64,000 nt of DNA from the NCBI GenBank assembly GCA_003427395.1, contig BFEA01000007.1:6479957-6543956 (forward strand), written 5' to 3'. Of the stretch, positions 23,030 through 55,238 are shown one piece after another. The notes beneath the pieces are model-generated. The model saw only the letters and a program-made list of their open reading frames with translations. It ran no database searches and had not been told where the DNA came from. Position 1 is the first letter of the stretch; the number at the start of each line of letters is the position of its first letter. This DNA is from Chara braunii (Eukaryota > Plantae > Charophyceae). The position numbers were made by a program, and so were the translations under genes.

Positions 23030-23090
<61 letters not shown>

Positions 23091-28350: not shown

Positions 28351-28351
28351 A

Positions 28352-34434: not shown

Positions 34435-35029
34435 TTATCTTACCTGCGCTAACCTCTCGGCCGCCTCCGCCAACGAGTCTTCAGACCTCTCTCGAGCGCC
34501 CTCGCCTTGATCGTGTATTGCTTGTTGCAGGGTTTTTTCGTACTCCTCCTCGAACTTTCTCTCGACCTCTAGCAGCGGTTCTCTTCGCGTCCTTTGGAAC
34601 CGCACCCCTCCTGCCTCACTGACAGAAATCGAGAACCTTGCTAATGTGGTCCAGGAACTCCTTTTCCACAAGGCCAATCGCCGGATTTCAACAAGGAATT
34701 ATTTTTTTGCTCGAGCCGTCTCTCCCCAAGCCCCATAGCTAGTTCCGCACCTCCTTCTACCTCGACCTCAAACCCGCCGTCCCGAGTCTCCAACTCCCAA
34801 GTTATCGAATTTGAGCTAAAGCTCGCTCTCATACCTATCTTTCTCCCGAAAGCAGCTCCTCCTTTAAATCGTTGAATATCTTAACCGTCGATGTCTCAAG
34901 GGATTTGATCCGGTGTAAAGATCCCGGTCTGGCTCTCCTTTTCTCTTCCCAGCAGAGAGTCGGGATCCTATACAATTCCGCCCTCACCCTCTCTAGGCCC
35001 ACTAGTTCTCCTTCGTCAGGTTCGCTCAT
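34435..35029 (-). pseudogene. Decayed accessory ORF(s), Glu/Leu/Arg-rich
   Basis: Chained frames 35029-34835, 34832-34641 and 34677-34435. Confidence 0.45.
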
Positions 35030-35480
35030 GCCTCAAGTTCCTTCTCCGACATGCAATAGCGACCCGAATGAGATCCGAGGGGTCTAGCCCTTCCAAGCCT
35101 GCCTCACAGATTTCCCCCAAGTATCTCCACGAGACGGACAATACCCTCACGTTTCGACCCCAGCCTTCGAATGCGTAACCGAAGTCTTCTAAGGAGGACC
35201 CATTGTTCTGATGCGGATTGTGCAAACACCAAAACAACAGGGCGTACAAGTCTGACTCGGTGAACCGAAATTGATTCAAGATTGAGACTCTACGTTCCAC
35301 CGCTCTTTTGACCGCATCGGAGGGGTAGACTCGCTCGAAGATGAAGCGGGGAACTTCCACCGGCTGGCTGGTAATAAATAGCGGCACCTCTTCCCAACCT
35401 GCGTACTCCACTCGATACACCCTTTTGTACTTCTGGCGAGGCCTCACTTCCCCGACTATGCTCTCTAGACGACGTCTCAT
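35016..35480 (-). CDS. Accessory ORF (154 aa; PxF[VI]F...C motif family)
   Basis: ATG 3 nt after the previous stop; PRFIFERV...FTESDLYALLFWCLHNP. Confidence 0.65.
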   Translation of the reverse strand: MRRRLESIVGEVRPRQKYKRVYRVEYAGWEEVPLFITSQPVEVPRFIFERVYPSDAVKRAVERRVSILNQFRFTESDLYALLFWCLHNPHQNNGSSLEDFGYAFEGWGRNVRVLSVSWRYLGEICEAGLEGLDPSDLIRVAIACRRRNLRHERT

Positions 35481-35483
35481 GGC

Positions 35484-35768
35484 TCACGCGTTTAAGAGAG
35501 GGTCCTCCCCTAACTTCAGACTTTGAATTACCTCGAGGAGTCCCTCCTTCGAGAGGAAGATCTTAGCTTCCCCGATCACTAAGCCTTTTTCAATACCCAC
35601 TGTCAATCGGACAAACGCCTTTTCCTGGCGGATTTCGGACACTTCCGTTAGAACGATTCGTGTTAGAACTTCCAAACTTGCCTTCGGTAGTGTGACGCGA
35701 ACGACCACTCCTGCCTCCTCGATAGGCTCCACCGAGGCCCAAAGGGTCCCCGGAATCCTTCTTATCAT
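35484..35768 (-). CDS. Accessory ORF (~94 aa)
   Basis: TGATG stop/start overlap at 35770-35766. Confidence 0.6.
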   Translation of the reverse strand: MIRRIPGTLWASVEPIEEAGVVVRVTLPKASLEVLTRIVLTEVSEIRQEKAFVRLTVGIEKGLVIGEAKIFLSKEGLLEVIQSLKLGEDPLLNA

Positions 35769-36031
35769 CACCTCGTCTGAGGCTCGTACCCCCTACGGTT
35801 TGTTACTTGTTCTTCCCCGAAGAGACGAGCGTAGGGGACGTCAGCGACGTGTGCCCTTACTCCTTCGAACTCTCTCAATCGCTCCAAAATCCCCAACAAT
35901 TCTCTCTCTCCCGGTATTTCCGAGTCCACACACCGGGTGTAAAGCCAGAACAAACCCAAAGTTCGGACCCCAAACCGATGGGCAGACCGGAGCACTTCTA
36001 CCACCCTCTCTTCTGAATCTCGTAGGAGTGT

Positions 36032-36412
36032 TCATGCCAAAAAGTTTGGCAGAGCCACGTGGAGTACCTTCGAGGCGTGGGGGATTTCTCCCGGTTCAGC
36101 AAACGCCACTAGTGTTGATAATTCGAAGGTGCCTTCCTCGTAACCTTTCAGGACTAAGTCGTTAGTCACCTGCCTAGCCAATTCTCGGTACCCCGTGTGT
36201 ACCTCCCGGTCGGTGACCAATCCCCTCCAGACCTCGGTCCACGAATCGTCGTCCATAAAAATTGTCGCGTGTATCTCGAGAAACCTGCCGATATGCGGCG
36301 GACTACCCCTTCGCACTCCTTCCTGCCACGTCAATCTACACGCCCTAACCCACACGTAAGCGCCCTCCTTAATTAATCCCCCCTTCTCATCACTCATACA
36401 ATAAGGTGTCAC
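36032..36412 (-). CDS. Accessory ORF, 5' end probably frameshifted
   Basis: Globular-looking 126 aa; its stop overlaps the next ATG (ATGA). Confidence 0.55.
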   Translation of the reverse strand: MTPYCMSDEKGGLIKEGAYVWVRACRLTWQEGVRRGSPPHIGRFLEIHATIFMDDDSWTEVWRGLVTDREVHTGYRELARQVTNDLVLKGYEEGTFELSTLVAFAEPGEIPHASKVLHVALPNFLA

Positions 36413-36591
36413 TCGAGGGTCCCCCGGGACCAGGATTTGGCCCCCCTCACTGGCCTCTATCGTTTCGATACCTCATTGTTGCTAAGAGCGAATCTGACCA
36501 TCTACCACGGCCGTCTGAACACCCACTCATAGTAGGTCTTCGGGGAGAGGGTAACAAACTTCTCTAGGGACCCAAGCCTCCTATAAATCCC

Positions 36592-37164
36592 CTAGAGCTT
36601 TGTTCGAGGAGGGGCCTCATGGCAGATACAATGGGTGTAAAGTAGCCACAAGGGTCTAAAAGGCAAACCCAAACTCCTCCCTCTTTCTAGGAGCCTCACT
36701 ATCTTATCCTCGTTTGATCCTAAGAACACAAAACATGGAGTCCTTACGGTCACCGGATAACCCGCCCTTGGAAGCTCACCCTCCCGCGCGAATCTTTCCG
36801 CTTTTATCGCCACAAAACAAAACTCCTTCCGAGTCATAACTATCCACCTCCTTTTTACTTCTCTCACCTCTTGGAGCAATAGATCCAGCCCACCTCCTTG
36901 GCCTAAGACCAGGTGTACCACGATCCTCGCCCAAGCGGCTGGTTCGATGAAGATTATAGCGGTGACTTTGAGGCCTGCCCCTGTCGCTTCCTTCCTCACT
37001 TCCTCTAACTCTATCCACACAAAATTTTTCCCCGTAGTGACTTCTCCACCCTCCAATTTCCTCCAATTGGGGGCCTCCCCGTTACTCGGGACCAGGCTAC
37101 AAATCCCTCGCTTGTCTAAGGGGAACTTGACAAAACGACCGAGCTCCTTGTCAAAAAGAACCAT
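36592..37164 (-). CDS. Accessory ORF (190 aa; probably extended to ~36502 before a nonsense change)
   Basis: TGA-ATG junction; PCFVFLG...FRPLWLLYTHCICHEAP. Confidence 0.65.
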   Translation of the reverse strand: MVLFDKELGRFVKFPLDKRGICSLVPSNGEAPNWRKLEGGEVTTGKNFVWIELEEVRKEATGAGLKVTAIIFIEPAAWARIVVHLVLGQGGGLDLLLQEVREVKRRWIVMTRKEFCFVAIKAERFAREGELPRAGYPVTVRTPCFVFLGSNEDKIVRLLERGRSLGLPFRPLWLLYTHCICHEAPPRTKL

Positions 37165-37521
37165 TCATGATCTCTCTCCGATTCCAAACACCCTTTGGTA
37201 ACAGTAATCTCGCCCACCTTCATGATCTCTCTCCGATTCCAAAGAGATTCTCCTGCGAATCCGGTCGACCCTAACCACATATGACACTGGGTTATTTACA
37301 CAATAGGAGAAGTACCAATGGAGTGACTGAAAAGACAGTCCCCTCCTTCTCTCCCGCCTAATGGATTTTACGACCTTCTCGTACGAGGCCCCCTCCCCAC
37401 ACACTCTCCGGAAGACAAAGGACGGAAAGATGGCTTGGACACACCCCGTAGCGCAAGGGTACTCCTTGTCCCGAGCACAAGTTACCCGCAAGCGGAGCGG
37501 CAGATGGTGCCGAAGGGGCAC
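37165..37521 (-). CDS. Small accessory ORF (PxF[VI]F...C motif family)
   Basis: PSFVFRRV...FQSLHWYFSYCVNNP; stop abuts the next ATG. Confidence 0.6.
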   Translation of the reverse strand: MPLRHHLPLRLRVTCARDKEYPCATGCVQAIFPSFVFRRVCGEGASYEKVVKSIRRERRRGLSFQSLHWYFSYCVNNPVSYVVRVDRIRRRISLESERDHEGGRDYCYQRVFGIGERS

Positions 37522-37554
37522 TTCTTCAAAAACCTATTTTAGGATAGGCCCTAC

Positions 37555-37905
37555 TCACACCTCCCAATGATCCGCCCGATACCACCCTAGTGCCCAGTGG
37601 GTGATGTATTCCACCCAGGCCTCTTGACCCAAGTAGACTGTGCCTTCCGCACGAATCGCTGTTTGTCGGGCCTTCTGCCCGTTCCTAGGTTTATTCCTGG
37701 TCTACTGATCCCCCTCCCAAATTCCCACGACGAAACGCGCCCAGAGAAAAAAACCCTTCTCGAGTTCCACACCTTTTTCGTGCCCGACTAAATATCTCTC
37801 CGTACGATGGTCCAAAGGGACGTTGAAGCACTCTCTCTCCTTGTGAAGGTCGGCCTTCTCGATTTGGATTCTACCGTCGCCAATCGCTTCTACAATCCTA
37901 ACCAT
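37555..37905 (-). pseudogene. Small accessory ORF with an internal TAG at 37704
   Basis: ATG overlaps the end of the previous ORF; the frame stays open after the single stop. Confidence 0.5.
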
Positions 37906-38273
37906 GCCCTTCCCTGGCTTTGGACCACCTCCTCAATAATCCCTACTAACACCTTCCAACCGTCCGACCCGTCGAGGTAGGCTTCCAGTATCGTTGGGGC
38001 AGGTCGCTCTCCTCGCCGAAAGGTCCGGCAACCCAGCGTATAAAAATACCGAATCCCGAAATTTCTTGAAAGTTCCCTCTTTAGCTGAGCATGACCAACC
38101 GCCTCTTCCCAGCTATCAAGGAAGTCTTCCCCTCGATCCGTCCCTTCTTCCACATTGAGTGCTAGATCAAAATCTTCGGCCCATAGATAATAGTCGTAAC
38201 ACCATACGTCCACACCCCCACGACTACCCATGATAATGCCTGTCGGCTCAACCTCGATAACTCCTAGGCTCAT
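37890..38273 (-). CDS. Small accessory ORF of unknown function (127 aa)
   Basis: ATG 7 nt after the previous stop; strong protein-level similarity to the upstream ORF. Confidence 0.75.
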   Translation of the reverse strand: MSLGVIEVEPTGIIMGSRGGVDVWCYDYYLWAEDFDLALNVEEGTDRGEDFLDSWEEAVGHAQLKRELSRNFGIRYFYTLGCRTFRRGERPAPTILEAYLDGSDGWKVLVGIIEEVVQSQGRAWLGL

Positions 38274-38280
38274 AGGCCCC

Positions 38281-38631
38281 TTACTCCCCCACTATCTCCT
38301 TTACGATCGCGACCAGCACTCTCCACCCCTTTGATCCGTCGAGATACGCGTTCGGAATTACGAGTGCGGGTCGCCCGCCCCTAGGGTAGGTCCGGTACCC
38401 CAAAGCGTAGAAGTATCTAAACCCGTACCCCCTCACCTCAGCTCTTTCTATGCGAGAGTAACCGACTGCCTCCTCCCATCCACGAAGGAAATTTTCTCCT
38501 TGATCTTGCCCTTCCTCTACGTAAATGGCAACGTCAAAATCTCCCGTCCATAGACGAAAGCTGTAGCACCACACGTCGATTCCTCCGTAGGTACTCACAC
38601 TAGTCCCTTCCGGAACCGCCTCTAGGCTTAT
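38281..38631 (-). CDS. Small accessory ORF of unknown function (paralog of 37890-38273); start codon probably mutated ATG->ATA at 38631
   Basis: GGIDVWCY...DFDVAIYVEEGQDQGENFL aligns with the neighbouring ORF. Confidence 0.7.
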   Translation of the reverse strand: MSLEAVPEGTSVSTYGGIDVWCYSFRLWTGDFDVAIYVEEGQDQGENFLRGWEEAVGYSRIERAEVRGYGFRYFYALGYRTYPRGGRPALVIPNAYLDGSKGWRVLVAIVKEIVGE

Positions 38632-40084
38632 GTGCCCATCCTAATCAAGGAAAATCTCCTTCGTTGCCTTTACTTTGGTCACTCGAGAGACCACCCCTAC
38701 CCTGCAAGGAGAAGGCACCTGAGAGCCCAGCGGGATCAAATGGACCAGAGAAGGAACGTCGTCTCACTCGGCTACCCTCCTGTCCTCCCCCGCTGAAAGG
38801 TCCTCCCACTTCCAAGCATAGAAACTAGCCGCGAACACAGGTTATCCCCGAGGAAGGGTGGCAACCCCCTCCCCGTAGTCGGACCGAAGTCACACACCAG
38901 TGCCCTATGTCCCCCACCGAACCGACCTCTAGTCCTAAGTTAGCCTATCCGGCACCACGCCCCAACTCAGCCTACCTCGAGCGTGGAATTACCCGGGTCC
39001 CATGACTTTTATCTGCCTATCGATCGATAATCACTAGCCTACCTACTCCATCTCATTCTCCTCCTTGGATCGCGAACTCTTCTCACTTTGTTCCCTTCTT
39101 TCTCTTCTCCACCGTCTGACTCTTTTCTCTCTCGGAATCCGAATATTTAATCAGGGTTTCACAAAAAAAGGGTGGGGAAGCAGAGCTTTAGCAAGAGAGT
39201 ATCTCAGGTTTGGCCACTTTAAATACGTACCTTGCAGTCTTCGACTTTTTCAGTATTCGTTCTCGTAGTCGCAGTAGTCCTCGAGATCCGAGTCCGAGAA
39301 ATCGACAAGGCACCAGTCCACTCAAGACTCGGCCTCCGATTCCTCGTCCAAGGTACCCCACGTATCTCTTCTCTCTTCTTCCCGAATTAGTTCCCTACCC
39401 CTTTCGTTCTCTACGGCGGTTGAAGTTCCCTCGACCCTTTGTCCCGGAGCCCGAAGCACTACCCTCCTCGCCCCCAAGTCCCGAACAGCACCCAAGTGAG
39501 AACTTCGCTCCCTCGCGGGAGTCGCGTCCCATGCAGGTATTGTCCACAACCCGCGTGGGTCGAGAACAGAAAACCCAGCCCCCACTTGAGAAGCTCGTTC
39601 CCTTGTAGGAGTCTCGTCCCGTGCGGGCGACGTCCACAACCCGTGCGGGTCGAGAATATTAGGAAAACCCTTTTCTCTTTGGACCAGCCCTCTTGGATCA
39701 CAAACTGATGGCGTCCCTGGGCCCCCTCGAACCCCCGTTTCCTCTCTCCTCCTAGTGTCCACTATCTCTTCCCCACGCGCGGACCCACTCACGCAATTTT
39801 CCTTGACGACTCTTCGTCCCCCTCTTTGGTTGTTTTTCACCCTCATTTAAACCCAATAAGCAAACTGTTTTACCCTCTTAATTAGTGAATTTTTAGAAAT
39901 AAATGCACAAAAAAAATCACGTTGTCGAGCGCATCGGCCCTCACGTGAAAACGAGGGCCCTCTCGGCTATGTCACGCAGGAGTGTACCTAAAAACATAAC
40001 GTTTAGAGACAACTCGGGAACGATGCATACTGTTCCGCGAACCACCGAGACGGACGCGGTTGCTTCGCTCCTTCGCCGCTCTAG

Positions 40085-40347
40085 CCGGGTGCGTCAGCTA
40101 TACATCCCACGGTCCCCTACGACAGGATAGGTTCCCGCGGGGCATAAGCTTGCATCCCTAAAGGGTTGTCACCACCCTTAGAGGCGTATCCCTACCGAGC
40201 TATTGATCCACGTGCGAAGGCTTTTAAATGCAATCGCAGAGGTAGATTAGCCGAGGGTGTTTGCTCGTCTCGCTGCAGTATAGGAATCGTTTGACTAAAC
40301 TCCGAATCAACCCGAGCGTCGTCCGTTCTCTGGGGCGCTGATCTCCC
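40085..40347 (-). ncRNA. Conserved structured RNA module B of unknown function; homologs at 20841-21110 (-) and 9501-9772 (+)
   Basis: Shared blocks GGGAGATCA, AAAAGCCTT, TAGCTC, AGGGATACGCCT, GGTGACA, CCTGTCRT, TATAGC within non-homologous flanks. Confidence 0.7.
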
Positions 40348-41166
40348 AAGTACGAAACATACGCCGGTGGACTAGGACAGTCTCAACCAAACGTGGAAAC
40401 GATCCTTAGTCCCTAGCAATCAAACAACAAAATTCTCATATTTAAAACAACATCACACAATCCAAATCGTTGACTTGATGAGTTGGTCTGCCAAAGTGTC
40501 CTTTTTCAACTTGTATGACTGACATAACTTTTTATACTGTCGTTCCAAAGATTATTAATTTAAAGAAATAAACTAAGAATGATCTTTTTATCATGACTAC
40601 TGAAACTTGTCATGAATAACTTCTTTAAATAAATATCACTGGTACCATGCAGATCAACAAGTGATCTGGTTCCTGGTCGATGTTTGAACTCCCGGTTCGA
40701 AAACGTTTCCGTACCATATACAACTACTTGGAGGAGCGAGTGACAACTTTGTTGGTTGCTTTGTCCTCCTAGACAATAATTATTATTTCTCTTGCACGAA
40801 TGATGGAGTATCCACCTCCAACACCAAGTTACGCAACGCAGAAATGTTTCATCTTCCCCTGCTTCGCTTGACAAATTTTTCAGACGTTCGCTTTTCACTT
40901 TATCCTGCTTATTTTTATGCGAACGATTACCCCTCAATGCATAAGCATGATAGTAAAATCATCGGGGTAATCCGAATACTATCCATCCGACGGTCCTAAC
41001 TACATAAGGTGTTTTGTTTTTGTTTTTAGATTACCTCGTGAAACCTTAAGTTATATGATTTCCTCAACGGGACTGAGTCTATGCGAAGTGTTTTCTGAAA
41101 TCTGAGTAAGATTTCAGAAGACGATGTCTAATCATGGTAAATCTCTCACCCGCCACGCACCTGTGC

Positions 41167-41679
41167 CTACAATAAATCCAAACGTGCGAGTTCGTCGTCG
41201 TCGAAAATCAAAGTAGACCTTCGTCCACATCGCATGACTTTCACAATCCGAGTATTATAGAAGGAGGTCATCCGAGAGGCTAGTCTCCAAACTATAACTC
41301 GGAGAGGTCGATTAAGTCCAAACAGGTGTCGAGTCTCTGTGTCCCGGATCCGGACGACGCTGAAACGCCTACCGGACGAGGTAATCTTGATACTCACAAT
41401 GACTCGAGAGAGACATTGAAGGTTACCCGCGCAGTGGAAATACAAAGTATAACCGTAAAGCTCGTCGGAAGTTCGATCCATGTTGGCTCTGAAATCTGCG
41501 CGAGTATTAGGAAAAAATCCCTCGCCACTTTGAAGCAGTCCAACGAAGACGAACCAGTCGATAGGAGATCCATCTCTTACTCGTAAAAGTCGCGCTGCAC
41601 TCCTGATGAGATCCTCCTCGGGTGTATCACGGACCAGAAGATACCTCGGGATTGTCAAGTCTCGTCGTGCTCCAGGCAT
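41167..41679 (-). CDS. Hypothetical protein (170 aa), ATG directly after a splice acceptor
   Basis: gactgatttggattcgttctgatacgcag|ATG; 23 nt after the previous stop. Confidence 0.65.
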   Translation of the reverse strand: MPGARRDLTIPRYLLVRDTPEEDLIRSAARLLRVRDGSPIDWFVFVGLLQSGEGFFPNTRADFRANMDRTSDELYGYTLYFHCAGNLQCLSRVIVSIKITSSGRRFSVVRIRDTETRHLFGLNRPLRVIVWRLASRMTSFYNTRIVKVMRCGRRSTLIFDDDELARLDLL

Positions 41680-41702
41680 CTGCGTATCAGAACGAATCCA
41701 AA

Positions 41703-42215
41703 TCAGTCACGTAAAAACTCCTCAAGTTCTTCCGCTTCATTTTCCAATTCATGATCATATAATGTTTCAGCCCCTATAATTGCGTACCTATTGGCACGTA
41801 TCCGCTCCGCGTAGTATATGCCAAAAATTGAGCCTTGTCGCTTGTTCAGCCAAAGCACGTAACGGACGAACATCAACCTTATTTCAGGGATTTCGTCCAC
41901 TCGTGTGTTGATCTCATGGGGCTGCAACACCACCAGGTTCATATTGACGAAGTGACGCTCGGGCAATGGCGGTGCGAACTCGTAATGAAGAATATCCATG
42001 CCGTTATCACTCCTGAAAACAAGTCGCCTAGGGGGTCTTTGCGCACTACCACCCCAAAATCGCGGAACGTCCTCCTCAGAATATAATTCTGACAGATTAT
42101 AAATAAGTCGGCCTATCCTTTCTACCCTCACTCTATCACGCCTTTGGAGTTCAACTCTCTCTGTTGCCGCATCACGATTGTTGAAAAGGAATAGTTTCGT
42201 GGTTCTCATAGCCAT
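41703..42215 (-). CDS. Hypothetical protein (170 aa), ATG directly after a splice acceptor
   Basis: ttctttttctttcag|ATG; intact, non-repetitive ORF. Confidence 0.65.
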   Translation of the reverse strand: MAMRTTKLFLFNNRDAATERVELQRRDRVRVERIGRLIYNLSELYSEEDVPRFWGGSAQRPPRRLVFRSDNGMDILHYEFAPPLPERHFVNMNLVVLQPHEINTRVDEIPEIRLMFVRYVLWLNKRQGSIFGIYYAERIRANRYAIIGAETLYDHELENEAEELEEFLRD

Positions 42216-44119
42216 CTGAAAGAAAAAGAAGCCAAATGTGTTTTGAGTTAAACTTTTGCCCTTGAGTATTATTCGGTTTTTGTCTTCCTTACAGCCCGTG
42301 TTTCTTATGACACGACTAACCACGTCAGGAGTATCTAACCGTACTCCGTTCAGCTAATAGGACATGAGTCAGGCTGCTTGTGACGCCAACTCTCCATACA
42401 GTAGTGGTACCTAGGATGACCACTTAAAACAGGATTGCTAAGGCAATTTTCCTTTTTCGCAAGGCATCAAGAAATAATTTTCTTCCGTGTAGATGCCTTT
42501 TCCATTACCCTAAGAGGTGGTCTGGGATACTTCTTCTCCTCGCCCGAGTATAAAACTCGGATCTCAGAAGTCGGGCCGTCTCCACCGAATCGGCATAGTA
42601 CCCCCCCGCAAGCGATCCGCAAAGCGGTCCACTCTGAGTCGATAACAGGGCCGGCCCCTAAGGCAACGAACCCCCGCCCCAGATGCCTCCTAGAAAAAAA
42701 GAAAAACACCTACACGGCAGACAAGTAAAGTCTTGCTGCATAGCGTCAAAGTAAACTTAGACGAAGAAAGAGGAATCGTAGAAAGATAGAATCATTCAGA
42801 CTGACAGGCATAGATGGAAGAGGGTTATTCGGGAAAGAATGGGTAACCTCAAGAATAAGTCTAAACCAAGTTGAACTTCTCTTCCTTATGCTCGCTTCGT
42901 TTCTCGTCGTTTTCTCTTTCTTTTATTTATACATAGAACACAAGCACAAAGATGAAAAGTCAATCATTCTTTCACCGCCATAACCCTCATCCATTTCAGT
43001 CCACATGTCGTACCTACAGTCAAAACCCAACGACACACAGACCACCATGCATTCCTTTACCATTGTCAGACTCCCAGTTATACACGCAAAAACACACATC
43101 CTCTTCCCTTTTTCAATGAACATTCAGTGAAAAACAGGTCAAAGCAAGTGTGGGTTCACTCAAGTGTGAAGGGAACTGAGTCAATTTAACTGACTGACCT
43201 TGAGTGAAATTGAAGAAACGGCCCACTCAGGAAGACCGTGTAAATCACACTCAAGAGAAGACGATCGTCACAATGACTCGCCCGCAAAACAATCCACACC
43301 ACTCCTTAGAACGATCGCTTGTCGCGACACCCTGCGTCGCCGCAGTAAAATTATCGCAGCGCTCCCGCACCACAGCTGGTTAAACCGGAGTAACCGTCGA
43401 AAGATTTCGACAGTGCTACCGCACCACTACCGAAAAACCCGGAACCGCCCCCGTAGAGAACCCGGTGGCGCTTCAGCACCACCACTGAAAAACCAGGCTT
43501 GTTGCTGCAAAAAAAAAAAAAACGGCGGCGCTTCCGCACCACCGCTGAAAAACCAGGCCTGTTCCCACAAAAAAACCGGCAGTGCTTCCGCACCACCGCT
43601 GAAAAACCAGGCGCGCCACTGCAAAAACACCGGCAGCGCTTCGGCAGCACTCTTGTACTACCACAGTAAAAGCCTGTGCCGCCGCAGCAAAATTTCGGCA
43701 GCACTTTCGTACTACCGCAGAAAAAGTCTGTGCCGCCGCAGCAAAATTTCGGTAGCACTCTCGTACTACCGCAGTAAAAGCCTGTGCCGCCTCAGCAAAA
43801 TTTCGGCAGCACTCTCGTACTACCGCAGTAAAAGTCTGTGCTGCCTGCCGTAGTACCTCAGTGCCACTGGGCCTGTCCCGTGGGACCAACACCAGTCAAA
43901 GGGGAGGGGAACAGAGTGCTCCCTGCCTTGGCTATGGCTGCCCAGTCCTCCTCCTGGTGGTCCTCTGCAGTCCTCCAGCTCCTCCTCACATTGCCTCAGC
44001 AGTCCTCCAGCTCCTCCTCACGTTGCCTCAGCAGCAGCTTCAGCAGCCACAACACTCAAGTGTGCCCGTCACACACTGGCAGCACGAGTGCTTTGTGTGG
44101 CAGCTGGGGGGCAGCTGCC

Positions 44120-44128
44120 TTTTTTATA
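44120..44128 (-). promoter_or_regulatory. TATA box candidate (second copy at 50030-50038)
   Basis: Minus strand ccaaTATAAAAAAggc in a GC-rich context, pointing toward the accessory ORFs. Confidence 0.45.
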
Positions 44129-46190: not shown

Positions 46191-46248
46191 AAAATTGACT
46201 ATTTCTCGATTTATGCGTGTCATCCTTGCGCAGGGGCCATGCTAATCT
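46191..46248 (-). ncRNA. U6: U6 snRNA 3' half (no 5' stem-loop or ACAGAGA box)
   Basis: Minus strand reads AGATTAGCATGGCCCCTGCGCAAGGATGACACGCATAAATCGAGAAATAGTCAATTTT, the plant-type U6 3' half as I recall it, followed by a T run. Confidence 0.93.
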
Positions 46249-47647
46249 CGCGCGCGGCTGATCTCAACCGCGAGATCTTCTTGATCGGACGACCGAGATC
46301 GACCGTGCCCGAAAGACTGGGTTGCTCCAAAAGGACCTAGCCCGGTAGTTACAGTTTCTCAGATTCGATCCTGGTGTCTGCTGGGTGGTAGTCGGGTGAC
46401 GTAACCTACTGGGCTAGCTCTTGTTTCACACTAAACAGGAGCAGCTCTTCAATATGAAGAGCTAGCCCAGCTGATTCTCCTGCCTGCGGCCTTGCAGGCT
46501 CCTCCTGTATGTGGCCTAGCAGGCCTGCCCAGGCTGTGGCCTAGCAGGGCTGCCCAGCCTGTGGCCTGCCGGCATTCCTGCCCGTGGCCTACCCATACCA
46601 GTTAGCCGCGTGATCGCGGCTTGGTCGGCCATCGAACCGGGTAAGCCTTGGCATTGGCCTATCGGCCCCAAGGCTCGACGTCAAACCCCGCGGCCTGTGC
46701 CGCGGCCTTATACCCCGCGCAACCGTCTTTTTAGCCCACTTAAGTCCTGAATCGCGCGGCTGCTACTAGGTGTAACTCTAGTCTTTCCATGACTGCACGC
46801 TACTGCGGTCTCGTCGAAAAACCCGTGGATGACAGTGTTGACTTTCGCTATCCCGTGCGGACGTCGATGTCGTCTTGCGTTGACGACGTAAGGTTCTAAA
46901 AGGTTTAGGTTTCTCAGTCATAGCGCTGGTCTAAATAAACGTTTGGCAAACATCAGTCTCATCAAGTCCTTCAATTCAACGCAAGAGTCGGACAACGTCC
47001 CACGTTCAAAAACACCGGCAAATAACCTTGTCAGGGTTTTTGCCTCGACAGCAATCCCAAACCCCATTGAACGACGTCCTCGTCGTTCACCCTATATTAG
47101 TCAACAATACAGGGCTCTCTGGATTCTTATGGAACTCTTTTCAACAAAATTTCTTTCAATCGAAAATAAGTCGAAGCTTATAACCAAAATCCGAGTTATT
47201 GCCTCGGTAATCTGAAATTCAATCATCCTTAATTGGAATGGTACCAGATGTAGCCTCTAGCAAGCCTTTCACCAAAACCTGAATTTATACCGGTTTCAAG
47301 TTCCGGAATTACTAAAATATTCGGAAACTTTGTCTAAATGGTCCCAGCATCATCCCACTGGTGGCAAATCTAAACATTATTTTAGTCTCTCAGAATGGTA
47401 CTGGAAATAGCCTCCGGCTAGCCTTCTAAACCTCAGTTGGCTAATATTTACATTTATCTAAGAGATCAGGTTTAACCCCCTGACGGGTATTTCAAAATAA
47501 ATAACCTTCTGAGCGGCCCAGACAGAATCTGAACCAACCATTCATGAGAAAAATCATTTATCAAAATTCCTTGTTCAGGTTTTGTATCCCATTCCAATTA
47601 CGAGTTATCACATATGACATTTTTCCTGCATGCTTTGTGATATGCGT

Positions 47648-48036
47648 TGAGTAGTGGTGTAATCCTCAAGGGATAACATCTCGACTTCGAGCCCCGCTTT
47701 AGACTCGAGCCTCACCACCTTCCCTTCGATTTCAGTATCATGTGTTTGCCAGTCCTCTACCTGCAAGGTTGAACTACCCTTTCTCTATGACCTAGGCTGA
47801 TCAGACCCGGGCATAAAGGCGAGGCGACCCCATTCGTCACAAGGTCAAGGTGACCACTCTTTTCCCCATGACGAGCGGCAGTCATCACCCTCACAAGCAA
47901 GATTCCGACAATCACAATAATAACATCCTCCCTTTCAATGATAGTGTAGCCACCTTCCTTAAAAAAAAAAAAAAAGTGACAGCATCCCACTATAGACCAG
48001 GAACTGAGTTCCGGCGTAGGCCTCACTACCACCTAC
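47648..48036 (-). ncRNA. Conserved module C of unknown function; homolog at ~16815-17208
   Basis: Shared blocks gataacatctc, gagcctcaccac, atgatagtgtag, gttccggcgt, taccacctac. Confidence 0.6.
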
Positions 48037-50833
48037 AGAGCTCACTACATCAGGACTCATCATAACATGTTTTGTGAATAACTCATAGTTATGCCACAAG
48101 CCATATAATGCAAATTACATATAATTTTCCTAGAACTTTTTTTTTTTTTACAACGAGAATATACATCAAATAACAACATACATTTTCACAGAGAGTTTCA
48201 TAACATTCCAGTCAAAAAATATTCATTAATTTGCATTGCATCACATTTCATCGAAAAAAGTAACAAGAAATCATTCAAATTTAGGAATCAACAAATTTTC
48301 GATCCAAAATCACAACATAATTCCACCGAATCGGCATAGTACCCCCCCAAAAAGCGGTCCACTCTGAGTCGATAACAGGGCCGGCCCCTAAGGCAACGAA
48401 CCCCCGCCCCAGATGCTTCCCAGAAAAAAAGGAAAACACCTACACGGCAGACAAGTAAAGTCTTGCCGCGTAGCGTCAAAGTAAACTTAGACGAAGAAAG
48501 AGGAATCGTAGAAAGATAGAATCATTCAGACTGACAGGCATAGATGGAAGAGGGTTATTCAGGAAAGAATGGGTAACCTCAAGAATAAGTCTAAACCAAG
48601 TTGAACTTCTCTTCCTTATGCTCGCTTCGTTTCTCGTCGTTTTCTCTTTCTTTTATNNNNNNNNNNNNNNNNNNNNNNNNNNNNNNNNNNNNNNNNNNNN
48701 NNNNNNNNNNNNNNNNNNNNNNNNNNNNNNNNNNNNNNNNNNNNNNNNNNNNNNNNNNNNNNNNNNNNNNNNNNNNNNNNNNNNNNNNNNNNNNNNNNNN
48801 NNNNNNNNNNNNNNNNNNNNNNNNNNNNNNNNNNNNNNNNNNNNNNNNNNNNNNNNNAAAAGTCAATCATTCTTTCACCGCCATAACCCTCATCCATTTC
48901 AGTCCACATGTCGTACGTGCAGTCAAAACCCAACGACACACAGACCACCATGCATTCCTTTACCATTGTCAGACTCCCAGTCATACATGCAAGAACACAC
49001 ATCCTCTTCCCTTTTTCAATGAACATTCAGTGAAAAACAGGTCAAAGCAAGTGTGGGTTCACTCAGGTGTGAAGGGAACAGAGTCAATTTAACTGACTGA
49101 CCTTGAGTGAAATTGAAGAAACGGCCCACTCAGGAAGACCGTGCAAATCACACTCAAGAGAAGAAGATCGTCACAATGAGTCGTCCGAAAAACAATTCAC
49201 ACCACTCCTTAGAACGATCGCTTGTTGTGACACCCTGCGTCGCCGCCGTAAAATTATCGCAGCGCTCCCGCACCACAGCAGGTTAAACCGGAGTCACCGT
49301 CGAAAGATTTCGACAGCGCTACCGCACCACTGCCGAAAAACCCGGAACTGCCGCCGTAGAAAACCCGGAGGCGCTTCCGCACCACCACTGAAAAACCAGG
49401 CCTGCTTCCGCACCACCGCTGAAAAACCAGGCCTGCTGCCACAAAAAAACCGGCAACGCTTCCGCACCACTGCTGAAAAACCTGCCCTGCCGCCGCAAAA
49501 AAAACGGCAACACTTCCGCACCACCGCTGAAAAAACCCGTGCCGCCGCAAATGTCGGCAGCACTCTCGTACTACCACAGTAAAAGTCTGTGCCGCCGCAG
49601 CAAAATTTCGGCAACACTTTCATACTACCGCAGAAAAAGTCTGTGCCGCCGCAGCAAAATTTCGGCAGCACTCTTGTACTACCGCACTATAAGTCTGTGC
49701 CGCCGCAACAAAATTTCGGCAACACTCTCGTACTACCGCAGTAAAAGTCTGTGCCGCATGCCGTAGTACCGCAGTGTCACTGGGCCTGTCCCGTGGGACC
49801 AACACCAGCCAAAGGGGAGGGGAGCAGAGCGCTCCCTGCCTTGGCTATGGCTGCCCAGTCCTCCTCCCGGTGCTCCTCTGCACTCCTCCAGCTCCTCCTC
49901 ACGTTGCCTCAGCAGTCCTACTACTCCTCACGTTGCCTCAGTAGTAGCTCCAGCAGCCACAACACTCAAGTGTGTCCGTCACACACTGGCAGCACGAGTG
50001 CTTTGTGTGGCAGCTGGGGGGCAGCTGCCTTTTTTATATTGGTTAAAGAGAGTTGGACGTCACTCCAGCCTCCAGGCAAAAACGCGGGTTCACAGTGAGC
50101 CCTTGATCCAGGGCTGACTGTGGCCGCACCACAGCCACAGCCTTAGTGTGGGGCGGTTTCTTTAACTGCCCTATTTTTTCTTTTCTTTTCTTTTTCCCAG
50201 CTATCTCGAAAGCTGGCGAGATAGCTGGTCTCCTGTCATTTCCAAAAGTGTTTTTCTTTTATTTTTCTGATAAGGGGTTGGAAAGTTACAGCCCCTTACA
50301 GTTTGATGTATCTGGACCCTTTTTCCAGGGCAGATACATCGGGGAAAAGGTTGTATCTAGCCTTTTCCTTAGCGGCCTTTAATTTTCCAGGCTCCCTGCA
50401 AAAACGAGAGCCTGACAGTTTCCTCTCGCAGCTTGTGCCAGAGGTAGCACCACGTGAGGACAAGTGTCCTCACAGAAAATAAAGAAAAGAGAAAGAAAAA
50501 CTAACTTTCTAATTCCTAATGAACCTGGCTTTTACCTCAGCCAGGTTCGTGTTGTTGCATGCAACAGCCTTTCCTTATTTCCCTCTGCCTTCCCCTGAAA
50601 AAGGGGAGGGCAGTTGGCAGGTTGAGAGGAGTAGGACCTCCCCCTCCCAACTCCCACGTCCCTCTCTTTCATTCTCCCACGCGAGTACAGTCGGCGTGAG
50701 ATTCAAGATCTCGCGGCCACAGTGTGTTGGGCAAATAAAAAAAACAAAGTGGGAGTTTTGTGCTCCCACACAGTCCCAAAGGACTGTTCTTTTCCTACCA
50801 CGAGGCAATTGCCTCGTTCGTTCTCTTTTTCTA

Positions 50834-50899
<66 letters not shown>

Positions 50900-51216
50900 T
50901 CTCTTACTTTTTCTTTTCGTTTCTTAGTCCTTTCCCCGTTTTTTTGTGCAACGGTCCTCCTTCAAAGGCCACGAACGGGGAGGAACAAGAGGGGAAAAAA
51001 AAAAAAAAAAAAAAACAGAAAAACAAAATACAAAAACTTACCTGAAATCGTCGTTTTGCGGCCGCAGCAACAACACTGCTTTGGCCACTGCTCGTGACTG
51101 TATTCTTCCGCGTTCCCGCGAAAGATTCATTCGATTATGCTCATCCTTTAGTTGGCCTCCTCGTCGAGGAGCCAACCTCAGGTAGGTTGGCAGGTAGGTA
51201 GGTAGGTAGGTAGGTA

Positions 51217-51282
<66 letters not shown>

Positions 51283-51466
51283 NAAAATTGTTGTTTTGCG
51301 GCCACAGTAACAGCAGTGGCCTTGGCCACTGCTCGTGACTGCATTCTTCCGCGTTCCCGCAGAAGATTCATTCGATTTTGCTCATCCTTTAGTTGGCCTC
51401 CTCGTCGAGGTCGTCGAGGAGCCAACCTCAGGTAGGTTGGTAGGTAGGTAGGTAGGTAGGTAGGTA

Positions 51467-51534
<68 letters not shown>

Positions 51535-51596
51535 CGTGCGCGCACGCGCGTGCGTGCGCTTGTACCTGGTCGCTATTGGTGCCAGGTTCAGGCGTT

Positions 51597-51657
51597 TGTC
51601 GACTGTCGGGGTCCAACCCCCTGATGAGTCGATGTAGCTCCGACAAAACAGTCGGCA
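51597..51657 (+). ncRNA. Type III hammerhead ribozyme with G12->A core change
   Basis: tgtcgactGTC-gggg(tccaa)cccc-CTGATGA-gtcg(atgtagctc)cgac-AAAAC-agtcggca. Confidence 0.85.
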
Positions 51658-51756
51658 CAGTTTGGGTCTCCCCCCCCCCTTTTGCATCTCTCTATTTTAC
51701 GCTTGTACCTAGGCGCCATAAGCGCCAGGTTCAGGCGCTTTTACTCGTTCAGTTGC

Positions 51757-51819
51757 TGCCCAGACTGTCGAGGCTCAGCCTCCTGATGAGTCGGTGAAAC
51801 CCGACGAAACAGTATGGCA
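51757..51819 (+). ncRNA. Type III hammerhead ribozyme, intact core
   Basis: gactGTC-gaggc(tca)gcctc-CTGATGA-gtcgg(tgaaac)ccgac-GAAAC-agt; predicted cleavage 3' of C51769. Confidence 0.92.
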
Positions 51820-52237
51820 CATGCATGCTTCGATTTGCCCGTTCGTTTCAAACAAACGGACACTCAGTCTCAAGCAAACAAAAAAAAGAAAAAAAAAATC
51901 TAAGTAGAATCTAAGAAGAAATCTAAGAAAAAGAAGAAAAGAAAATTAAAATTAAAAAATTCCAACTTACCTCCGAAAACGGCTCGACGCTGTAGAAACG
52001 GCGCCGTTTTCTTCAGAGACTATAAGTCCCTTTCTTCTCAGTGCGCCATCTGGCGCAGTTCGTTTTTGCTCGTTTGTTTGTTTGTTTGTTTGTTTGTTTG
52101 TTTGTTTGTTTGTTTGTTTGTTTTTAGAATTCTTGTTGGCTTATGCCAACGGTCGTGCTGTGTTCGTGGGTTCACCCACGAACTGTTGCAATGCAGACCC
52201 GAGTTCGAGTCTAGATGGACTCAAAAAAAATAATAAA

Positions 52238-52297
52238 AAAAATTGGACTATTTCTCGATTTATGCGTGTCATCCTTGCACAGCGCCCATGCTAATCT
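52238..52297 (-). ncRNA. U6: U6 snRNA 3' half, second copy with 3 substitutions in the ISL/U4-pairing region
   Basis: Minus strand reads AGATTAGCATGGGCGCTGTGCAAGGATGACACGCATAAATCGAGAAATAGTCCAATTTT. Confidence 0.9.
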
Positions 52298-53568
52298 CGC
52301 GCACGGCTGATCTCAGCCGCGAGATCTTCTTGATCGGACGACCGAGATCGACCATGCCTAAAAGACTGGGCTGCTCCAAATGGAGCTAGCCGGGTAGTTA
52401 CAGTTTCCCAGATTCGATCCTGGTGTCTGCTGGGTGGTAGTCGGGTGACGTAACCTACTGGGCTAGCTCCTGTTTCACACTTAACAGGAGCAGCTCTTCA
52501 ATATGAAGAGCTAGCCCAGCTGATTCTCCTGCCTGCGGCCTTGCAGGCTCCGCCTGTATGTGGCCTAGCAGGCCTTCCCAGGCTGTGGCCTAGCAGGGCT
52601 GCCCAGCCTGTGGCCTGCCGGCATTCCTGCCCGTGGCCTACCCATACCGGTTAGCCGCGTGACCGCGGCTTGGTCGGCCATCGAACCGGGTAAGCCTTGG
52701 CATTGGCCTATCGGCCCCAAGGCTCGACGTCAAACCCCGAGGCCTGCGTCGCGGCCTTATACCCCGCGCAACCCTCTTTTTAGCCCACTTAAGTCCTGAA
52801 TCGCGCGGCTGCTTACTTTAGGTAGACTAGGTGTAACTCTAGTCTTTCCATAACTGCACACTACTGCGGTCTCGTCCAAAAACCCGCGGATGACAGTGCT
52901 GACTTCCGCTATCTCGTGCGGACGTCGATGTCATCTTGCGTTGACGACGTCAGGTTCTAAAAGGTTTAGGTTTCTCAGTCATAGCACTGGTCTGAATAAA
53001 TGTTTGGCAAACATCAGTCTCATCAAGTCTTTCAATTCAACGCAAGAGTCGGACAACGTCCAACGTTCAAAAACACCGGCAAATACCCTTGTCAGGGTTT
53101 TTGCCCCGACAACGCCTCCCAGCAAGAATCTGACCTGGTTTTTCTTCTAGAAGTCGCAAGTGGGCTGAAGCTGCAAGCGGGGTTGGCGTGGACCTGCAAA
53201 ACCAAGAGATTCCAATACCCCAAGCCCCTCACACCCAAGCAACCTGGCAACCCCTCCCACACGGAAGAACACACGTCCCAACGATGCCCAAAAGGATGTC
53301 TTCTAGGAAATGTCGTCGAAAGGTCGCCGAAAAAAAGTACCGAGGAACTTCAAAGCCGAAGAGGCCGTTGAAAAAGTTGATGCCGAAACGAAAACTTTTG
53401 AAGAAACTGATGCCGAGAAAATGCCGTTGAAAAAGTTGATGCCGAAAACAAAAATTGCCGAAAAAACTGATGTCGATACCAAAAAAAATGAGCCCTCCGC
53501 TACCTGTCATGCTCGTTCTCCCTCTTACCGTAGTCCTTGAGCCGACCGAGGCCACGAGAGAAAGCCCA

Positions 53569-53586
53569 TCCCCGGCAACGGCGCCA
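53569..53586 (-). promoter_or_regulatory. Primer-binding site, tRNA-Asp
   Basis: TGGCGCCGTTGCCGGGGA, 3 nt after the LTR end ...CTGACA; complementary to the plant tRNA-Asp(GUC) 3' end, as used by Athila-type elements. Confidence 0.9.
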
Positions 53587-53589
53587 TTT

Positions 53590-54550
53590 TGTCAGCCGGG
53601 GAGCTACCCTTTGTCTCTGGTCTCAGATATCAAGGTGCTTAGTGGTCCGAAGGCTGCCCCTTTTCGCTCCACTCCCCCGGCACTAACTGTCTCAGCCTAG
53701 ACTGGGTTCGGTAGCCCTAGCATTCCCCATGGTCACCCCCTCTCCAGCCCTCTTGAGCCGGTCGAGGCCACGAGAGAAAGCCCATCCCCGACAACGGTGT
53801 CATTTTGCCAGTCGGGGAGCTACCCTTTGTCCCTGGTATCAGATATCAAGGTGCTTAGTGGTCCGAAGGCTGCCCCTTTTCGCTTCACTCCCCCGGCATT
53901 AACTGTCTCAGCCTAGACTGGGTTCGGTAGCCCTAGCATTCCCCATGGTCACCCCCTCTCCGGCCCTTTGGCGTGGCTCTGGCCTAGGCCTTCGCCCTTA
54001 TCAGACTTGCGCCCTTAGTCCAATAGCGGTACGATCCGACACCGAAAAGAATTACCGACGAACTCGGTTGCCAATGGGGAAAGGAACCCAGTTTTGAGTT
54101 GACAATGGGAGGGGGGCGAACAGTTTGGGTTTGCGGAACTGCGGTTTGGTGAAGACTAAGATTTGTTAAGTCCACGGGGCACCCATACCACGACATCAAG
54201 GTGGATAACAGTACTACGGAACTAAGTTCAGCGTTGGATAAAAGGGTCTCCTCAAATTTCGGGAACTTGGTTCAGCGCAGAGGAAACATAGTTTCTCGAG
54301 ATTAAGGGACTTGGTTCGAAGCAGAACAAAATGGAACTGGGTTCGGTGGAGGGTAAAACAGGATTTCCCAAAGTCATTAAAACTCAGTCTGGTGCAGAAC
54401 AGAACTGCACCACATGCTCGGATGAGTCTCGAGCTTCAAAGTAAAGCAAACACCTACGCGAAACTCAAATAAAACCCGGGGTGAAAAAATGAAAAGGTTT
54501 GTATGAAAGCCGACCAAAAAAAGGACGTTTGGGAGCTTGACCCGAACCGT
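53590..54550 (-). repeat. 3' portion of the 5' LTR, with a ~217-bp tandem duplication of the LTR-end/PBS junction
   Basis: Matches 21927-22670; ~53536-53752 is repeated at ~53753-53969 with a degenerate second PBS. Confidence 0.85.
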
Positions 54551-55111: not shown

Positions 55112-55238
55112 GTGTCGGGAACCACCGACGGGACTAAGTGTCGGGGACCACCGACGGGACTAAGTGTCGGGGACCACCGGCAGGACTAAGTGTCGGGGAC
55201 CGCCGACGGGACTAAGTGTCGGGGACCACCGACGGGAC
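55112..55238. repeat. 26-bp tandem repeat x5 (gtgtcggggaccaccgacgggactaa)
   Basis: Direct inspection; each unit can form a gtcgg/ccgac hairpin. Confidence 0.9.

Follow-up and report, generated by a model that had tools for sequence, protein, structure and literature searches.

A decayed Ty3/Gypsy element of more than 30 kb lies, as a broken copy, on the minus strand of a 64,000-nt stretch of the Chara braunii genome (GCA_003427395.1, contig BFEA01000007.1, positions 6,479,957 to 6,543,956), hereafter the window, whose numbering is used throughout. Ahead of gag it carries a coding block of approximately 5.5 kb (33.1-38.65 kb) in which about nine small genes abut, five belonging to two families of paralogs, and further upstream a 13-kb leader (39.9-53.1 kb) with two ORFs, hammerheads, a unit present twice and a structured RNA that has a U6 tail. 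These parts are real but probably derive from two elements, and we give a probability of roughly 60% to the reading that a Gypsy lineage with an AUG-poor array of its own acquired its leader from a commoner LTR family. An earlier sequence-only reading, which proposed a single virus-like giant element with both an accessory gene block and its own RNA toolkit, is borne out in part: there is support for a Gypsy element whose accessory array resembles a polycistron, but so far none for the combined all-in-one system.

Architecture of the Gypsy element

Domain and protein matches identify gag, protease, RT, RNase H and integrase in Gypsy order at 26685-33038 (minus strand), the Pfam order being protease, RVT_1, RT_RNaseH, Integrase_H2C2 and rve, and the best solved relative of the RT is that of Ty3 (E 4e-29). 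The gag-pol region is interrupted by a 500-bp hairpin insertion at about 31520-32013 and by stops and frameshifts. All 19 relatives of the protease (19/19) carry the name C. braunii. This pol order, the LTR pair, a primer binding site (PBS) as well as a polypurine tract place the element in Ty3/Gypsy.

The internal region measures 26.9 kb. A putative polypurine tract at 26664-26677 (minus strand) is followed by TG, from which the start of the 3' LTR (21927-26662, minus strand; about 4.7 kb, TG...CA) was placed with an uncertainty of about 130 nt. The 5' LTR survives only as its 3' part (53590-54550, minus strand), which matches 21927-22670 with 745 bp alignable at 92% identity; it is truncated at 54551, at a depth step with loose ends, by a plus-strand, high-depth element beginning with TG. 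A 216-bp tandem duplication in this remnant spans LTR end and PBS. The tRNA-Asp type of the PBS, already recognized in the sequence-only reading, was confirmed: located at 53568-53586 (minus strand), 3 nt past the CA that ends the LTR (53590), it agrees in 19/19 letters with a PBS described in the FIDEL paper as complementary to Asp tRNA, and a second, degenerate copy lies near 53800. The 3' LTR is followed by TCGTT, where an intact copy of the target LTR has TTGTT; this pentamer is a candidate target-site copy, and the 5' side lies outside the window.

Content of the leader

The leader unit is 4.8 kb long and its two copies, detected by self-match, are 91-95% alike. Copy 1 (48322-53114, minus strand), which ends at a depth edge at 53114, contains module D, a TATA-like box, structured RNA, a U6 half, a tRNA-like piece, hammerheads and 54-bp tandem arrays. 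Copy 2 (42581-47050, minus strand) is separated from it by a spacer (47051-48321, minus strand) that holds module C, also found at 16812-17207 in a neighbouring element. The U6-derived chimeric RNA predicted earlier was recovered as two U6 3' halves (model positions 46-105) on the minus strand at 52298-52237 and 46249-46188, of which the second is not independent, since the unit is duplicated; one U6 copy has changed core bases. The 500 nt from TATA-like box to U6 T-tract (52236-52735 in copy 1, minus strand) form a candidate structured RNA, predicted to be a Pol III-type transcript, that folds with z -6.9 and -5.8 against shuffles in the two copies (0/100 each). Module B (39923-40540, minus strand) folds weakly (z -1.6, 8/100 shuffles); it consists of a TATA-like box and the 3' end of another family's LTR, the alignment running down to the terminal CA with no PBS after it.

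The claimed hammerheads exist as two type III motifs at 51600-51654 and 51762-51815, 162 nt apart, but they lie on the plus strand, antisense to gag-pol, and a conserved core base is changed in the first; the core of the second is intact. A 945-N gap (44950-45894) sits where those of unit copy 2 would be. GTAAGT donors at 51972, 51044 and 45925 are all in sense. ORF42 (170 aa; 41703-42215, minus strand), for which domain and protein searches found no homolog, starts directly after a strong splice acceptor (42216); the ATGs at 41679 and of gag have a bare GCAG in front. ORF41 (170 aa; 41167-41679, minus strand), which gave no family match, begins 23 nt after ORF42, and sense ATG-ORFs of at least 60 aa cover 93% of 42.25-41.15 kb. 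ORF39 (174 aa; 39322-39846, minus strand) is partly a 90-bp repeat and of weak coding status. At 53.5-42.3 kb no excess of sense ORFs was seen at 60 aa (42/200 and 175/200 shuffles reach the observed values); at 90 aa the stretch 53.5-47 kb beats shuffles (3/200), with frames that sit in short tandem or simple repeats. The small ORFs do not occupy the whole 20 kb of the sequence-only reading, the coding block being about 5.5 kb long.

Origin of the leader

Contig depth in DNA run X1 was summed over near-copies at least 80% alike, a rough guide that gives no copy number and favours conserved parts. By this measure the LTR has a depth of 11-47, most of the array 146-336 and most leader bins 2,600-4,100, with peaks of 14,000 at module D and 53,138 in the bin of module B; relative to the leader, depth is roughly 10 times lower in the array and 100 times lower in this element's LTR. 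The neighbouring element, which is unrelated, also contains modules C, D and E as well as a hammerhead. Among the 19 gene models chosen by protease match none (0/19) joins leader modules to this gag-pol, a result of limited reach, as models so selected and 214-683 aa long rarely extend far upstream. Given these three observations, the view of the RNA modules as the family's own toolkit is so far not supported, and the accompanying caveat that part of the structure could be a second element has become the more likely reading for 39.9-53.1 kb.

The leader (53114-39923) likely entered by a template switch between co-packaged RNAs primed by tRNA-Asp, or else by later insertion, and its unit would have duplicated after arrival. 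K2P distances between unit copies are 0.02-0.05 versus 0.085 between LTRs (p 1e-4), with transversions alone giving p 0.37. The hammerheads would be tolerated because, being antisense, they are proposed not to cut genomic RNA. Here 450 nt separate the PBS from module D downstream of it, compared with 22 nt for a PBS of this kind in one X1 contig, so that the leader stands in a native-looking place.

It could instead be supposed that all of this is one stable family of about 36 kb, in which LTR, PBS, unit, ORF42/41, module B (serving as an internal promoter and a splice donor), array and gag-pol go together, with leader copies elsewhere as its deletion derivatives or diverged sister lineages and with U6 RNA and antisense hammerheads kept for function. 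We regard this as unlikely. All parts do lie within a single pair of LTRs whose 3' junction is clean, module D natively follows a PBS, donors and acceptor-led ORFs are all in sense, and in the window neither a target-site repeat nor a second B-type LTR marks a nested insertion. In other copies, four X1 contigs also connect the U6 piece with the structured region upstream of it (sides of 22-28 nt, a weak link), and the depth steps are not clean: integrase reaches about 1,000, merely 3-4 times below the leader, and 38.3-39.9 kb lies near it at 1,200-1,600. Co-inherited parts should, however, match in abundance, whereas near-copies at 80% or above are numerous for the leader but close to none for this LTR, and RT depth is below that of the leader; moreover, module B is an LTR end, none of the 19 gene models reaches the leader, and core bases are changed in one hammerhead and one U6 copy. 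Rather unlikely, too, is the fullest version, a stable 36-kb charophyte Gypsy lineage with a virus-like programme in which at least nine selected genes would be scanned from one RNA, gag would be spliced, an internal LTR-derived promoter would act, a Pol III RNA on the catalytic half of U6 would tune splicing or bind U6 factors, and antisense hammerheads would cut silencing transcripts.

The accessory gene array

Whatever the source of the leader, ATG-ORFs of at least 60 aa at 38.7-33.1 kb cover 58% in sense to gag-pol versus 11% in antisense and 12% in shuffles (0/200). All array genes are on the minus strand. Family A (37890-38640; gene model P0012) comprises A1 (38640-38281) and A2 (38273-37890), which are 55% identical and differ by 35/29/65 over the three codon positions (dN 0.33, dS ~3.0); the pair is under purifying selection. 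Family B (35768-37905; P0010) comprises three paralogs of about 200-240 aa with starts at 37905, 37164 and about 36500, all damaged in this copy. Genes C (94 aa) and D (154 aa) follow at 35016-35768, with a TGATG overlap before C and a C-D gap of 3 nt, then an uncertain ORF x (64 aa) and gene E at 34435-35029 (P0008, P0013), the latter broken here and about 157 aa long in two gene models. The broken genes F and G (33117-34288; P0008, P0009, P0013) could be a 5' extension of gag. The seven junctions range from a 16-nt overlap to a 7-nt gap and include TGATG and TGA-ATG. The array would have expanded by tandem duplication. Pieces of gene F weakly resemble C and D.

P0008, P0009, P0010, P0012 and P0013, i.e. 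5/19 protease relatives, also match array ORFs at 45-66% identity. They lie on other contigs, of five different lengths, and have array pieces joined to the same gag/protease in the order of the window, so that the block recurs at five loci besides this one. Pieces of such arrays are also carried as annotated Chara host genes. The array differs from its first description: several small ORFs taken as separate genes are pieces of larger genes broken here, as with 36472-35771, a single unbroken stretch of about 236 aa in P0010; the block does not end at 34435 but continues to about 33.1 kb; and, rather than all ORFs being co-oriented, 19 of 41 mechanical ATG-ORFs of at least 55 aa are sense and 22 antisense, only the coding-supported ones being all sense.

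Searches of Pfam, PHROGs, proteins and metagenome and viral contigs found no homolog of the array proteins outside Chara, and no fold was found. Pfam and protein searches gave no env match among the element's proteins, and hydrophobic 19-mers in the array proteins do not exceed 1.2 except in B2 (1.82, borderline). The array proteins are likely soluble accessory factors rather than envelope. That they counter host silencing or handle RNA or the particle is a guess by analogy, and a somewhat doubtful one.

Translation of the array

The array contains 45 AUGs versus 64.0 +/- 6.4 expected, a count as low in 0/300 shuffles, and AUG is its third-lowest trinucleotide; protease-integrase has 78 versus 65 expected, and ORF42/ORF41 are not AUG-poor (17 versus 18.4 expected). 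Internal Met occurs in 1/518 positions of three array gene-model parts versus 11/483 in P0001 (p 0.002). The array thus has the AUG-depleted, closely joined upstream ORFs of a leaky-scanning polycistron, depleted rather than free of AUG. The 45 that remain exceed what scanning along the entire array would allow in this copy, and some of them may be later mutations.

The array genes are likely read from one RNA through leaky scanning and stop-start reinitiation: ribosomes would enter ahead of the array, on a capped or spliced RNA, and move along it by scanning, each gene taking a share, and gag is likely reached via splicing to the GCAG preceding its ATG. TGGGA, the core of the calicivirus TURBS, was absent from the 100 nt before each of 10 array starts tested. 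No expression was seen, as two of three RNA runs are almost without array reads and the third tracks DNA depth on both strands. Of the virus-like expression logic first proposed, the recurring polycistron-like block and the scanning-type signs stand; the RNA modules as its own toolkit are so far unsupported.

Alternatively, the array genes could be real and the element's own, but each translated, in the manner of complex retroviruses, from a separate mRNA that is spliced or has an internal start. This fits the leader's donors and the ATGs with a leading acceptor at ORF42, ORF41 and gag, and about nine genes are many for scanning; RTBV scans only about 900 nt (PMC5902531). The array itself, however, contains no acceptor with at least 12 pyrimidines, its intergenic gaps of at most 7 nt leave little room for acceptors, and monocistronic mRNAs need no AUG depletion, all of which makes this improbable compared with reading from one RNA. 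Finally, that the array is the remnant of a separate element or virus beside gag by chance, or mere open frames in purine-rich DNA, is very improbable and largely refuted already, for although it lacks homologs outside Chara and RNA support and its codon score tops the six frames in just 5/16 pieces, five independent gene models hold its pieces in order with the same gag/protease, dS greatly exceeds dN in A1/A2, no shuffle matches the ORF cover or the AUG depletion, and its read depth resembles that of gag.

Significance and comparison with known systems

In the plant Gypsy elements that have been reported, extra ORFs number one or a few and mostly lie after pol. If true, a selected, paralog-expanded block of about nine orphans before gag would bring the gene content of LTR elements towards that of pararetroviruses and give a natural test of the range of leaky scanning and reinitiation on eukaryotic RNA. 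The leader family, which is abundant and has a structured RNA whose terminal part is half a U6, merits a description of its own.

Like retrozymes, the leader has tandem type III hammerheads near Gypsy signals; retrozyme hammerheads are in LTRs of 300-400 bp around 300-600 bp, with a tRNA-Met PBS (PMC4918200), and since those found here are internal, antisense and 162 nt apart, this identity was rejected. Cassandra, Helenus and Ajax are tiny TRIMs whose LTRs contain 5S or tRNA promoter pieces (PMC10886601, a paper with 0 occurrences of "snRNA"); our element resembles them as an LTR element carrying a piece of a Pol III small-RNA gene, but that piece is internal, is a 3' half and ends a structured region, and the identity was likewise rejected. 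A complex retrovirus or env-bearing Gypsy was also rejected, as no env match was found and only B2 is borderline hydrophobic.

The OTA non-chromoviruses (Athila, Ogre, Tat/Retand) have LTRs that reach about 5 kb, tandem repeats within long non-coding regions, and extra ORFs (PMC6317226, PMC6431247, PMC2844528). The tRNA-Asp PBS and long LTRs are like those of the Athila/Calypso group, and without its 13-kb leader the element would be about 23 kb, at the top of the reported OTA range (about 24 kb). The aRH of Tat/Ogre was not found, as the stretches from protease to RT, from RNase H to integrase and beyond integrase gave no further RNase H match; nor was an Athila env-like ORF or ORF1 domain, the integrase tail reaching 26685, just before the polypurine tract, with no Pfam match; nor a chromodomain at the integrase end (Pfam, 27152-26685). 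Unlike Ogre, with 1-2 extra ORFs, this element has about nine small abutting genes 5' of gag. The OTA survey counted only extra ORFs of at least 250 codons, so arrays of small genes would be missed and may be wider spread. Burro, a planarian giant Gypsy, is similar in its internal region of about 25 kb, its length of more than 30 kb with LTRs and its accessory functions, but joins known domains into a single polyprotein, about 4,900 aa long and with homology to env (PMC6431247), whereas here the accessory genes are separate small orphans ahead of gag.

As in green-algal bicistronic genes, AUG is under-represented before downstream ORFs; those, however, are chlorophyte host genes with two ORFs, tested in vivo, as opposed to about nine predicted genes of a retroelement (PMC11892635). 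RTBV, badnaviruses and CaMV likewise have close or overlapping AUG-poor ORFs ahead of a capsid-RT gene, allowing leaky scanning (PMC5902531). No movement protein or TAV was recognized among the proteins of our element, which differs from these viruses in its LTRs and integrase, its residual AUGs and its many more upstream genes.

Structure of the large element

Judged by its sequence, the large minus-strand element is a member of Ty3/Gypsy, with protease, reverse transcriptase (RT), RNase H and integrase in Gypsy order and Ty3 RT as the best solved relative. All four are broken in the window copy, and gag is interrupted by a 500-bp hairpin insertion. This palindromic sequence of ~500 bp (31520-32013), with a summed depth near 96,000 in DNA sequencing run X1, is likely a very abundant MITE-like element. 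All 19 protease relatives (gene models with P numbers) are assigned to Chara braunii by their sources, which makes a Chara the likely host; P0015-P0018 form a second Chara subfamily of the gag-protease, at about 40% identity.

Self-comparison of the window gives an LTR pair (21927-22670 and 53806-54550, 92% alike), both copies of which close with CTGACA or a variant. The primer binding site (PBS), 19 nt at 53586-53568 on the minus strand, lies 3 nt past the end of the upstream LTR copy, and its letters are the same 19 for which the FIDEL paper, in the part consulted, states complementarity to Asp tRNA (PMC2844528), as the sequence-only reading had it. A purine tract at 26677-26664 (minus), followed by TG, suggests a 3' LTR of 4.7 kb, from ~26662 to 21927; the internal region measures 26.9 kb. 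The 5' LTR is interrupted at 54551 by a plus-strand element with far higher read depth, and its missing piece is absent from the 64-kb window. The interrupting element (54551-58400) begins with TG and contains 26-bp tandem repeats and internal duplications; reads at about 54.9-57.6 kb are strand-biased in two RNA runs. Satellite arrays of 91 and 92 bp lie side by side at 58698-63257.

The 3' end of the large element lies ~57 nt inside the LTR of another family and is adjoined by TCGTT, likely a target-site copy, where an intact copy of the target LTR has TTGTT. Another long LTR element occupies 21924-13600 on the minus strand, and its 5' LTR is the apparent insertion site of the large element. 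This neighbour carries a tRNA-Asp-like PBS near 20741, a TATA-like box accompanied by hairpins and, at 13653-13598, a type III hammerhead in sense orientation. Open frames of at least 80 aa on the minus strand number only four in its stretch 20744-13500. A full LTR of this neighbouring family, 92% like 21924-20744, follows a purine tract at 8627-9866 (plus).

The accessory gene array

The array ahead of gag (38.65-33.1 kb) is a real gene block. Sense ATG-initiated ORFs cover 58% of 38.7-33.1 kb versus 12% in shuffles (0/200 shuffles), and antisense cover is 11%. At 60 aa no comparable sense excess was found in 53.5-42.3 kb; the coding block measures about 5.5 kb, against the ~20 kb first noticed. 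The array holds family A (two paralogs, 55%), family B (three paralogs), C, D, E, F and G, besides a doubtful x, and nine genes are counted when x is left out. Differences between A1 and A2 fall 35, 29 and 65 times on codon positions 1, 2 and 3, with dN 0.33 and dS about 3. The codon-usage score exceeded that of its own shuffles in 16/16 array pieces (z 1.3-4.2) and was top of six frames in only five of them. Among 21 differences that were listed between the window and other copies, 19 are non-synonymous; this is near chance and was set aside as evidence.

Array ORFs are spliced onto gag or protease in five of the 19 protease-relative gene models, located on contigs of five different lengths: family A in P0012, B3 in P0010, E followed by G or F in P0008 and P0013, and F and G in P0009. 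Identities are 45-66% and the order is always that of the window, so by sequence comparison the array is a companion of this gag-pol. The proposed recurrence of module order at other loci hence stands for array and gag or protease, whereas nothing above 38.6 kb is matched in any of the 19 models (selected by protease, at most 683 aa). B3 forms one stretch of about 236 aa in P0010 and is in pieces in the window, which shows that some of the "small ORFs" of the window copy, earlier taken as separate genes, are gene fragments.

An exact look-up of ten window ORFs gave no hit in the sequence collection; word searches gave 0/165 candidates for B2 at near lengths and 0/1,366 for the leader's ORF42 (41703-42215) at longer lengths only. 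The single full-library match of gene D, a repeat-rich protein, was dismissed as chance. All array ORFs stayed short of the curated cut-offs in Pfam and PHROGs and had no match there with an E-value below 0.01. Metagenome contigs contained no ORF42 and one RT relative at 30%; viral contigs had no match for family A or RT. Predicted folds have pLDDT 49 for family B and 39 for family A, and Foldseek searches of the viral and PDB sets at E 0.001 came back empty. Atlas scores of family B towards gag or coat-protein clusters (0.76-0.80) are a lead only; profile comparison with the element's own gag gave probability 0.05. ORF42 scored 0.90, towards unrelated, unnamed clusters. No membrane segments were found in array proteins, bar a borderline one in B2. 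Our guess, by analogy, is that the array proteins might act in counter-silencing or in RNA or particle handling.

Translation of the array

At seven array junctions, neighbouring genes overlap by up to 16 nt or stand at most 7 nt apart; TGATG and TGA-ATG are examples, and the joint between B2 and B3 is ambiguous. The array has 45 AUGs versus 64.0 +/- 6.4 in shuffles (0/300 as low), while protease-integrase has 78 versus 65 and ORF42/41 (41703-42215 and 41167-41679) 17 versus 18. Ranked by under-representation among trinucleotides, AUG is third in the array; in pol it comes 59th. In three non-overlapping array parts from other loci, one of 518 residues is an internal Met versus 11 of 483 in P0001 (p 0.002). 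In the sections consulted, AUG-free upstream ORFs allow leaky scanning in RTBV and badnaviruses (PMC5902531), and algal bicistrons are depleted of AUG ahead of ORF 2 (PMC11892635). Given the tight junctions, the AUG depletion and these parallels, the array is likely translated by leaky scanning plus stop-start reinitiation. The 45 AUGs left in the decayed window copy count against scanning. The absence of the TGGGA core motif from the 100 nt ahead of ten array starts counts against scanning plus reinitiation. No long pyrimidine splice acceptor was found in the array; GCAG directly precedes the gag ATG, which hints at expression of gag by splicing.

RNA modules of the leader

By Rfam, the leader contains two 3' halves of U6 in sense and two antisense type III hammerheads, confirming that the U6-derived sequence and hammerheads initially noticed are present; a third hammerhead, that of the neighbouring element at 13598, lies outside the large element. 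A core base is changed in the first hammerhead of the leader, and cleavage of the genomic RNA is expected from neither leader hammerhead, as both are antisense. A degenerate hammerhead-like motif (10270-10345, plus) and a module E copy beside (GT)n (4389-4434) occur away from the large element.

A strong fold is predicted for the 500 nt from a TATA-like box to the U6 T-tract (z -6.9 and -5.8 in two copies), and they contain one internal T4 run only, which would fit a candidate Pol III RNA. One 4.8-kb duplication gave both U6 copies. The U6 piece is joined to the upstream region in four X1 contigs (diverged copies, short sides); further contigs show ordinary or A-tailed U6 pieces, which makes a captured 5'-truncated U6 retrocopy a simple origin. 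The U6 half shares a T/A tract with a degenerate, A-tailed tRNA-like piece (52140-52230 and 46090-46180, plus) that is placed tail to tail to it, and RNA reads there run on into tRNA- or SINE-like starts. Both copies of the leader unit (48322-53114 and 42581-47050) include 54-bp tandem arrays of two alternating unit types (43330-43850, 49250-49760) and a minus-strand ORF of ~66 aa (43123-42923, 49026-48860), whose five differences, three at third positions, are too few to judge.

Module B can be aligned to the final 350 nt of the LTR of the neighbouring family, TATA-like box through terminal CA, and no PBS comes after it. Other copies, by their loose ends, have a GTAAGT splice donor on the element strand at 40144, inside module B; the window copy lacks it, and the neighbouring LTR carries GTGAGT at the equal position.

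Origin of the leader

Summed contig depths in X1 at 80% likeness, a rough relative guide only (single contigs 6-17), are 11-47 for the large element's LTR, 53-237 just past the PBS, 2,600-3,600 for the structured RNA, 14,000 for module D (edge at 53114), 2,600-11,000 for 40.5-43.3 kb, 53,000 for module B, 1,200-1,600 for 38.3-39.9 kb, 146-336 for the remaining array, 235-362 for gag, 400-680 for RT-RNase H and about 1,000 for integrase. Since near-copies of the leader outnumber those of RT and the LTR has almost none, exchange of the leader with a more abundant family would be the best explanation. The neighbouring element (20.7-13.6 kb) shares modules C, D and E and has a hammerhead too. We favour, at a probability of roughly 60%, a composite element with a leader from another family and scanning of its array.

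A stable family in which leader, array and gag-pol belong together, as originally proposed, is unlikely: all parts do lie inside one LTR pair, module D natively follows a PBS in another contig and no insertion scar was found; against it stands the excess of leader over RT near-copies beside a nearly copy-less LTR. Of that all-in-one system the recurring array before gag holds, while the RNA-rich leader is probably of other origin than the array-bearing Gypsy lineage. No fitting target-site repeat was found around module B. K2P distances of 0.02-0.05 between leader unit copies versus 0.085 between LTRs suggest duplication of the unit after insertion; transversions alone give no support.

Expression

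Over 26.5-43.3 kb, three oligo-dT runs, sampled at 6-13% each and which Pol III RNA would escape, yielded 71, 2,067 and 166 reads, two of them at 99% or more. The array is nearly without reads in two runs, and the third tracks DNA depth on both strands. Depth on the structured region does not exceed 1 in two runs; the third reaches about 6. No RNA joints occur among the rows shown, and a sequencing-run search listed no RNA run as containing the element. The oligo-dT reads show no expression and exclude none.

Comparison with known systems

Comparison ruled out both a retrozyme (PMC4918200) and a Cassandra-type TRIM (PMC10886601), as these are described in the parts consulted. Set beside the clades of PMC6317226 (consulted part), the element shares a tRNA-Asp PBS and long LTRs with Athila but lacks its env-like ORF, and it lacks the aRH of Tat/Ogre as well as a chromodomain. 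Extra ORFs number one to two in Ogre, and in Burro a single polyprotein accounts for a length of 30 kb (PMC6431247, in part); extra ORFs of plant elements lie mostly after pol, per the section consulted of a review (PMC7264820). No description of such an array was found in the literature searched, mostly open-access, and the Chara genome paper may describe these repeats. Within that literature, it is new for a Gypsy lineage to carry about nine orphan genes ahead of gag in a block that recurs, is poor in AUG and shows selection.
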